Below are positions 35,207-35,359 of a stretch of DNA of 64,000 bases, piece after piece. How positions within the stretch are numbered: the first letter of the stretch is position 1; each line of letters begins with the position of its first letter. A model generated the notes under the pieces. It was given only the letters and a program-made list of their open reading frames with translations, had not been told where the DNA came from and searched no databases. Location: positions 4,200 to 68,199 of the forward strand of contig DASWRS010000244.1 of NCBI GenBank assembly GCA_036403075.1, given 5' to 3'. Origin of the DNA: Kofleriaceae bacterium. GTDB taxonomy: Bacteria > Myxococcota_A > Polyangia > Haliangiales > Haliangiaceae. A program made the position numbers and the translations under genes.

Positions 35207-35359
35207 ATGAAGAAAGCCAAGAAGACCCGGCTGCACCGCGAGCGCGACGTGCTGCGCGTCCTGCAGAGCTACGAGCTCGGCGGCGTCGCCGGCGGGTCCG
35301 ACACCATCATCAAGCCGCCGCCGCTGACGAGCGACTCGAAGGTCGCCTGCTGCGTCTGA
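35207..35359 (+). CDS. 50-aa double-glycine-leader peptide (uncalled small ORF)
   Basis: GGAG, then 7 nt, then ATG, 22 nt after the di-heme gene stop. Sequence is MKKAKKTRLHRERDVLRVLQSYELGGVAGG|SDTIIKPPPLTSDSKVACCV. It shares the LRxLxxxxLxxVxGG motif with the peptides at 15920 and 19096. Confidence 0.5.
   Translation: MKKAKKTRLHRERDVLRVLQSYELGGVAGGSDTIIKPPPLTSDSKVACCV

Follow-up and report, generated by a model that had tools for sequence, protein, structure and literature searches.

Our analysis of a 64,000-nt stretch of Kofleriaceae DNA (assembly GCA_036403075.1, contig DASWRS010000244.1; the whole stretch is called the window here) indicates that a 50-codon open reading frame (ORF) at 35207–35359 on the plus strand is a real, probably functional and lineage-restricted gene for a double-glycine (GG)-leader precursor peptide. 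The ORF starts with an ATG at 35207 and ends with a TGA stop at 35357–35359, and its translation consists of the leader MKKAKKTRLHRERDVLRVLQSYELGGVAGG followed by the core SDTIIKPPPLTSDSKVACCV. It begins 22 nt behind the TGA (35182–35184) of a gene for a di-heme lipoprotein and occupies most of the 251-nt gap between this gene and a convergent gamma-glutamyltransferase (GGT) gene. An earlier, sequence-only reading of the window had pointed to this site as an uncalled GG-leader micropeptide with a short Cys-bearing core; the geometry that it gave (GGAG, 7 nt, ATG, 22 nt after the stop) is exact, coordinates and sequence were confirmed, and the description as a precursor is now backed by a coding signature and by homologues.

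Genuine genes of this 72% GC genome have a GC content of about 0.9–0.98 at third codon positions (GC3) and of about 0.45–0.6 at second positions. With values of 0.62, 0.46 and 0.98 at codon positions 1, 2 and 3 (49 of the 50 third positions are G or C), the ORF fits this pattern. A composition-based gene map of the window showed no real gene overlapping the ORF on either strand, and the coding signature is its own because there is no gene beneath it on the other strand; a minus-strand frame at 35269–36699 that covers the ORF was rejected as a gene, since it reads the GGT region in another frame. Many small ORFs of the window owe their high GC3 to a gene on the opposite strand. A Shine-Dalgarno-like AGGAG or AAGGAG is found at similar spacing in two of the three other intact homologues. 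The intergenic coding signature and the three further intact homologues argue against the caution, voiced in the sequence-only reading, that the ORF could be fortuitous. Annotation pipelines overlook genes this small: a search of a set of 5.8 billion proteins with the peptide returned solely the window's own entry, small ORFs evidently being uncalled there, and a comparison with Pfam and NCBIfam gave no match even at E ≤ 10.

Homologues were sought by searching all six frames of 138 genomes from this family and by a metagenome scan. The former yielded two full-length relatives, MKKTHKTRLVVERDVLRVLQAHELSQIEAG with the core NGIGDSNACTTKQQVTTDSVKICCA in G054 and MKTTKNLKKAKLQVEREVLRVLQDHELRHVEGG with the core RPAVTGDSVNVCCA in G078, and the latter a third, MKKAKKTRLHVDRETLRVLEGHQLREIEGG with the core RPPATTDSEKACCT, on the metagenome contig L087; the hosts are uncultured soil Kofleriaceae. 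The hydrophobic leader positions and the leader end [E/Q]-L-x-x-[VI]-x-[GA]-G are kept in all four intact copies, whose consensus reads L-x-[VR]-x-R-x5-L … E-L-x-x-[VI]-x-G-G. In the window peptide, L(-15), L(-12), E(-8), L(-7), V(-4), G(-2) and G(-1) correspond to the double-glycine consensus and are kept in the homologues, with the cleavage site of G054 reading A-G instead of G-G. All four copies end their cores with T-x-D-S-x3-C-C-[AVT], and the remaining core varies in sequence and in length (14–25 residues). The core of the window peptide holds five Ser/Thr and two Cys residues, among which T41, S44, C48 and C49 are invariant. Twenty columns are invariant among the three copies first aligned, including the hydrophobic leader positions, the GG and T-x-D-S-x3-C-C. 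Pairwise dN/dS over alignable codons is about 0.4–1.1, and near 1 for the window copy against its closest intact copy, G054; constraint is therefore concentrated on motif positions. A search of the 138 family genomes for the core-end pattern at the DNA level gave no real sites beyond the six already known; of the extra matches, two with a terminal stop codon are antisense artefacts and four run into TGG instead of a stop. As far as these comparisons reach, the core-end motif is without a described counterpart, with four intact copies found.

The leader is one of many in this genome, where sibling leaders first showed up as BLAST-like hits. A hidden Markov model (HMM) seeded from the peptide's relatives, including the peptide itself, matched about 25 small ORFs on about as many contigs, with the consensus MKK..KL.L.RETVR.L...EL..V.GG and with differing cores of 15–40 residues that are rich in Cys, Ser and Thr. 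The HMM score of the window peptide (57.9 bits) proves nothing in this respect because its sequence was in the seed. Members outside the seed are largely the same ORFs that were matched independently by NF038153, a model of class I lanthipeptide leaders, and an independent profile gave 17 leader ORFs at E ≤ 0.01 in this genome and 0–32 per genome in relatives. Judged by these profiles, the genome contains a dispersed leader family of at least 17, and probably about 25, members. Contigs with leader ORFs include C6, C593, C559, C166, C94, C296, C347, C123 and C374 as well as C272, C198, C489, C308, C323, C270 and C551, and most of the ORFs are orphans. Three siblings of the window peptide exceed the NF038153 cut-off of 22 bits (26–33 bits) and nine score below it; weak matches were obtained to TIGR01847 by one sibling and to TIGR04149 by three. 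A LanC gene stands directly upstream of one sibling (C123:2560), and another sibling (C559:12152) lies 2 kb upstream of a LanC gene and has a core, EGSTIITERPTRLARLASC, that resembles the core of the window peptide (SDTIIKPPPL…ACC).

Two sites of GG-leader genes stand out by their arrangement. At C347:3988–4833 (minus strand), 17 kb from a di-heme paralogue, three tandem genes with GG, AG and SG leaders encode cores that all start with CPTGSWP. At C559:928–15306, two large genes of the Ser/Thr-kinase/WD40 type are each followed within ~80 nt by a GG-leader gene, and the region continues with an erythromycin-esterase-like gene and a stand-alone LanC gene, an unusual neighbourhood for a precursor of the lanthipeptide type.

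We consider it probable that the gene encodes an orphan GG-leader precursor that is cleaved and exported in trans by a peptidase-containing ATP-binding cassette transporter (PCAT), with thioether rings formed by LanB and LanC enzymes acting in trans. The 30-residue leader would fold as an amphipathic helix, hydrophobic at positions −4, −7, −12 and −15, and end in Gly-Gly, after which the C39 domain of a PCAT encoded elsewhere would cut during export of the 20-residue core. The leader appears to be of the LxLxKx5L…GG type known from precursors of class I lanthipeptides. Likely sites of lanthionine-type rings are therefore the Thr/Ser and Cys-Cys residues that are invariant in T-x-D-S-x3-C-C, and the LanB dehydratase and the stand-alone LanC cyclases of the genome would install these rings in a prochlorosin-like manner. 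A small secreted peptide with antimicrobial or signalling activity would result, and its gene would ride on read-through from the di-heme gene, with no functional tie to the di-heme protein. We infer cleavage at the GG, export, ring formation, activity and co-transcription.

Candidates for the enzymes required by this reading are present in the genome. Eight C39-domain matches were found on other contigs, at least two of them in PCAT-sized frames (C173:21741–24104 and C164); one full LanB gene stands next to the PCAT on C173, and there are four stand-alone LanC-like genes, on C123, C362, C456 and C559, plus one partial match. The filter used to screen small ORFs near the C173 LanB/PCAT cluster picked out no cognate precursor. 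One of the stand-alone LanC genes has a DUF1111/DHOR-like di-heme fragment beside it (C362:11–2693; identified by eye from a CDGCH site).

Known systems resemble the peptide in part. Class III lanthipeptides carry the labionin motif S-x-x-S-x3-5-C, and T41-x-x-S44-x-x-x-C48-C49 fits this spacing. The leader also holds V-L-R-V-L-Q, which recalls the ILELQ of class III lanthipeptide leaders; the role of ILELQ is described in PMC8341899. However, a GG export site is not the usual end of class III leaders, and no LanKC was found in the genome, where NF038151 gave kinase-only matches (best 80.7 bits, cut-off 575). A search for LanM with PF13575 was likewise empty, which is a weak negative because the domain was found in none of the control genomes either. 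Walker et al. (PMC7268733) described class I LanAs that have LxLxKx5L instead of FxLD; many of them close with Gly-Gly, and their clusters often encode a C39 protease. These LxLxKx5L…GG leaders (NF038153, lant_leader_L1a) have been described mainly from Bacteroidetes, in the pinensin-type group (PMC7268733). The window peptide shares with them a Lys-rich start, a GG end and a core with Ser/Thr and Cys and has a block close to L-x-[L/V]-x-[K/R]-x5-L, whereas no LanB, LanC or C39 gene is adjacent and the host belongs to the Kofleriaceae (Myxococcota), not to the Bacteroidetes. The leader end E(-8) L(-7) x x V/I(-4) x G G is also that of PCAT-processed peptides such as class II bacteriocins (TIGR01847/TIGR04149 type), whose leaders span some 15–30 residues, finish with GG, GA or GS, often carry Glu at −8 and usually have a C39 transporter gene as a neighbour.

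In its genomic organisation the family is reminiscent of the prochlorosins. About 17–25 scattered precursors, mostly orphans, share a conserved leader, differ in their cores and are accompanied by one LanB and four LanC-like genes, and the set of about 25 suggests that Kofleriaceae hold a dispersed library of precursors in prochlorosin style. In contrast to prochlorosins, the enzymes are of class I type instead of LanM, the leader family is a different one, and modification in trans is our own proposal here. To judge from these comparisons, the gene is a narrowly distributed newcomer among known precursor genes of the GG-leader/lanthipeptide type.

Several observations weigh against this assignment. 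The window peptide gave no match to NF038153 at E ≤ 10 and is thus filed as a divergent relative of this family, not as a proven member. Its block L9-H-R11-E-R13-DVLRV-L19 has Arg in place of the second Leu of LxLxKx5L (the three intact homologues have L-x-V-x-R-x5-L). Neither a PCAT nor LanB, LanC or any other maturase was found in the 64 kb of the window, and ring formation in particular is pure inference. LanB is present in all five relatives checked, including those with a decayed peptide, so its co-occurrence does not discriminate. Finally, the dN/dS near 1 against G054 and four relic copies, described below, speak for weak constraint outside the motif positions. A patchy, often lost and fast-evolving gene is usual for accessory precursors of bacteriocins or of peptides that are ribosomally synthesised and then modified post-translationally (RiPPs).

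Alternatively, once the leader is cut the 20-mer could leave the cell via PCAT without modification and act as a class II-type bacteriocin or as a signal, its Cys-Cys pair serving as free thiols, as a metal ligand or in an intermolecular disulfide. The canonical GG leader and the C39 transporters of the genome would suit such a peptide, there is no maturase nearby, and the peptide fails the lanthipeptide-leader model. We nevertheless regard this as unlikely, since Thr, Ser and both Cys residues are strictly conserved at ring-compatible spacing and sibling leaders match the lanthipeptide model and adjoin LanC genes. Moreover, adjacent cysteines are poorly suited to stabilising an internal disulfide. 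No transporter or immunity gene adjoins the peptide gene.

The occurrence of the gene was surveyed at 12 orthologous loci, defined by the AraC-family regulator, a di-heme gene of at least 77% identity and, in most cases, the convergent GGT gene. The peptide is intact at two of these (this genome, G000, and G054), a relic at four, and missing at six. Among the relics, G017 retains a recognisable leader without a start codon, G079 has lost the leader and is left with a 23-codon ATG frame, G024 lacks the leader and has a stop ahead of the core, and in G074 the motif is shortened and the stop lost. Where nothing remains, the gap is only a few bases long (G083, L083), spans 116–135 nt without similarity to the peptide (L084, L086), or is followed by a second di-heme copy in place of GGT (G004, L085). 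Accordingly, the four di-heme orthologues from metagenomes among these loci had no peptide, with gaps of 3–135 nt or a second di-heme copy. The GGT gene is syntenic at every orthologous locus with peptide or relic and also stands beside the metagenome copy L087. The di-heme gene is full-length at most of the 12 loci; in G054 it is apparently frameshifted near residue 360, which may be an assembly error.

This distribution raises the question whether the window copy is itself on the way out, that is, once functional, now neutral and intact by chance. The relic or loss at 10 of 12 loci and the dN/dS of ~1 against the closest intact copy would fit, and from base composition we estimate a chance of ~0.4 that 50 codons stay free of stops at this GC content. 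Such a history seems improbable to us, as the gene has kept its start codon, its Shine-Dalgarno sequence, a GC3 of 0.98 and all motif positions, whereas the relics have quickly lost start and leader and thereby show how decay looks; in addition, the motif positions are invariant in four copies in which other positions vary freely.

The cores of three relics right behind the stop of the di-heme gene, L055 (G017), L056 (G079) and L058 (G024), share 18 identical bases, CCGATCACCGGGGACTCG, which encode P-I-T-G-D-S, as well as TGCTGCG, and the three codons between these blocks are almost wholly different (KLE, VRA and RRE). The gene that adjoins these relics is 86–91% identical at third positions. 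Either a hypervariable patch may be under selection in supposedly dead copies or a leaderless form may still be used. The gap of L084 (5862–5998) contains a brief remnant of another di-heme C-terminus (…GQEVTYTCVPSGSGARIAATQ*), in line with the tandem duplications in G004 and L085.

The sequence-only reading had gone further and suggested, as speculation, that the peptide and the adjacent di-heme oxidant could form a second modification module with the same leader logic as two other GG peptides of the window. In this scheme the peptide would be the dedicated substrate of the MauG/CCP-like lipoprotein, which would cross-link or hydroxylate it in the periplasm. The two genes lie on the same strand, with no promoter-like site found in the 22 nt between them, which suggests that the two are probably co-transcribed at loci that have the peptide gene. 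Gene order is kept in G054, relics occupy the same site in four relatives, and the enzyme has two CxxCH motifs and weak similarity to the CCP/MauG superfamily. Against this, the conserved small ORF that such a module predicts behind orthologous di-heme genes is decayed (four loci) or absent (six loci) while the di-heme gene persists. Seven further di-heme hits were found in this genome, five of them (nearly) full-length and two cut by contig ends, and none of the six paralogues with a readable downstream flank is followed by a GG-leader ORF; nor does the di-heme family, with >6,850 members, show such a partner. The intact G078 copy adjoins neither a di-heme-family gene nor a GGT gene, and no peptide accompanies the di-heme orthologue that G078 carries on another contig. 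The GG export leader of cytoplasmic type is common to about 25 unlinked genes, and the core lacks Trp and Tyr, residues used in chemistry of the MauG type. The 12-locus survey, the paralogues and the G078 copy thus make it plain, on genomic evidence, that the side-by-side arrangement characterises a single small clade and that the enzyme does not need the peptide. We therefore hold a two-gene module to be very improbable, and give least credence to its variant in which the exported peptide would be oxidised at its Thr/Asp/Ser/Cys-Cys end by the co-transcribed lipoprotein, a haem oxidant akin to MauG or hydrazine synthase, in an extracytoplasmic RiPP-like pathway whose relics would reflect recent loss of an accessory substrate.

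The N-terminal half of the di-heme neighbour is a YVTN-type beta-propeller that resembles the surface-layer protein 1l0q and hydrazine synthase beta, and its C-terminal half carries CxxCH sites 182 residues apart. The sequence-only reading had called it CCP/MauG-like. The two CxxCH motifs and a weak, correctly ordered similarity agree with this label, but the match to PF03150 (CCP_MauG) is below the cut-off (E = 0.003; 18.5 bits against 25.6, over 34 residues). A precomputed PF03150 match exists for a few homologues of the family, and profile comparison with the PDB returned hydrazine synthase gamma (4e-4), the ‘di-heme enzyme’ 6e1c (0.03), 1iqc (0.04) and 3o5c (0.11), the last covering the second haem region. 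In an AlphaFold 2 model built from 20 sequences (mean pLDDT 54) the propeller alone is confident and the haem region is below 50, and because this region is unusable, MauG-family membership is unproven; the label seems reasonable at the superfamily level. Like MauG and di-heme CCP, the neighbour has two CxxCH sites, here about 180 residues apart. Unlike the MauG pair, however, enzyme and peptide co-occur inconsistently here, and the substrate of MauG is a folded protein subunit with Trp residues, not a GG-leader peptide. An analogy to quinohaemoprotein amine dehydrogenase (QHNDH), which combines di-heme, propeller, a small cross-linked subunit and a QhpR-like AraC regulator, was dropped: the regulator scores 164 bits against the QhpR cut-off of 250, the peptide has no Trp, and there is no adjacent radical-SAM/SPASM partner.

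The >6,850 members of this lipoprotein family (E ≤ 1e-10) are spread across phyla of soil bacteria, including Acidobacteriota and Pendulispora, and are named in the sources only ‘YVTN beta-propeller’ or ‘hypothetical’; the halves of these proteins resemble the beta and gamma subunits of hydrazine synthase. The paralogues in this genome lie on C347, C370, C270, C22, C277, C449 and C590, which with the window gives eight copies or fragments.

The two other GG peptides of the window, at 16012 and 19188 (both minus strand), have a 2-oxoglutarate oxygenase and a flavoprotein as neighbours (Pfam scan). A position-for-position match of all three leaders had been claimed, and the shared motif LR.L.{4}L.{2}V.GG indeed has exactly three occurrences when all six reading frames of the window are considered, namely in these three peptides. 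It occurs eight times in the 10.5-Mb genome and ~0.25 times are expected from residue frequencies; the motif frequency is thus more than chance. Five of the eight occurrences are in GG-leader small ORFs, one is in an apparent sigma-54-activator-type ATPase (by eye) and two are in apparently non-coding frames. Homology, in contrast, was not recovered: BLASTP of the window peptide against the other two gave no alignment at E ≤ 100, and the leader HMM reached one of them at E = 55, the other being unreported. By these measures, what the three peptides share is a generic double-glycine-leader consensus, not ancestry, and the leader logic that had been carried over to the di-heme gene concerns unrelated leaders.

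Taken by itself, the single gene is of modest significance; a more interesting lead is the wider pattern of precursors scattered over Kofleriaceae genomes. With ~17–25 look-alike leader genes per genome, and up to 32 in a relative, these uncultured soil bacteria would hold a sizeable and still unexplored repertoire of secreted small peptides of lanthipeptide type, organised as ‘one enzyme, many precursors’ rather than as classical gene clusters. Removing the tempting but unsupported link of the peptide to a haem enzyme spares experimental effort.

Table 1. Positions of the peptide gene, its parts and its neighbours in the window.
Feature	Positions	Strand	Basis and remarks
AraC-family regulator (context only)	30910..32019	+	PF12625, PF12833; upstream of di-heme gene; syntenic in relatives
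953-aa lipoprotein, YVTN-type beta-propeller with two CxxCH haem sites	32323..35184	+	Lipobox LASSC; CASCH, CNGCH
Shine-Dalgarno-like GGAG	35196..35199	+	7 nt before the ATG; read directly
Peptide gene, 50 codons, including stop	35207..35359	+	Translation, codon-position GC, homologues in G054, G078 and L087
Leader, residues 1–30	35207..35296	+	Lys-rich N-terminus, L-x-R-x-R-x5-L block, GG end; alignments
Predicted core, residues 31–50, SDTIIKPPPLTSDSKVACCV	35297..35356	+	Follows the GG site; variable among homologues except for the C-terminal end
Core end T41-x-D43-S44-x3-C48-C49	35327..35353	+	Invariant in 4/4 intact copies and 3 relics
GC-rich hairpin, possible bidirectional terminator (weak)	35386..35427	+	Between the stops of the peptide and GGT genes
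Gamma-glutamyltransferase (GGT)	35436..37016	-	PF01019, E = 2.8e-143; convergent neighbour

The hairpin downstream of the peptide gene has a folding energy of −54.8 kcal/mol and is not significant because its z-score against shuffles is −1.7; a consensus scan showed no intrinsic terminator at this position, and Rfam, promoter and terminator scans of the gap gave nothing meaningful. In G078 (L042; G078:C307, 341–1091), the copy of the peptide gene lies 265 nt from a tmRNA gene (tag ANDNSAIALAA), convergent to a DAO-type FAD oxidoreductase gene, and a DHOR-type di-heme oxidoreductase gene (PF06537) is found 7.5 kb away.

Elsewhere in the window, a MacA-MacB-TolC-type tripartite ABC efflux operon at 50534–55243 (minus strand) encodes an HlyD protein, an ABC ATPase, a permease of the MacB/FtsX kind and an outer-membrane factor. 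Situated 15 kb away from the peptide gene, this operon specifies a generic exporter, and a link to the peptide is without support. A cluster for non-homologous end joining at 25350–30821 comprises a Ku-domain protein of 651 aa with a long N-terminal extension on the minus strand and, on the plus strand, PolX/PHP and LigD genes, the latter ORF with phosphoesterase and primase-polymerase domains and without a ligase domain.

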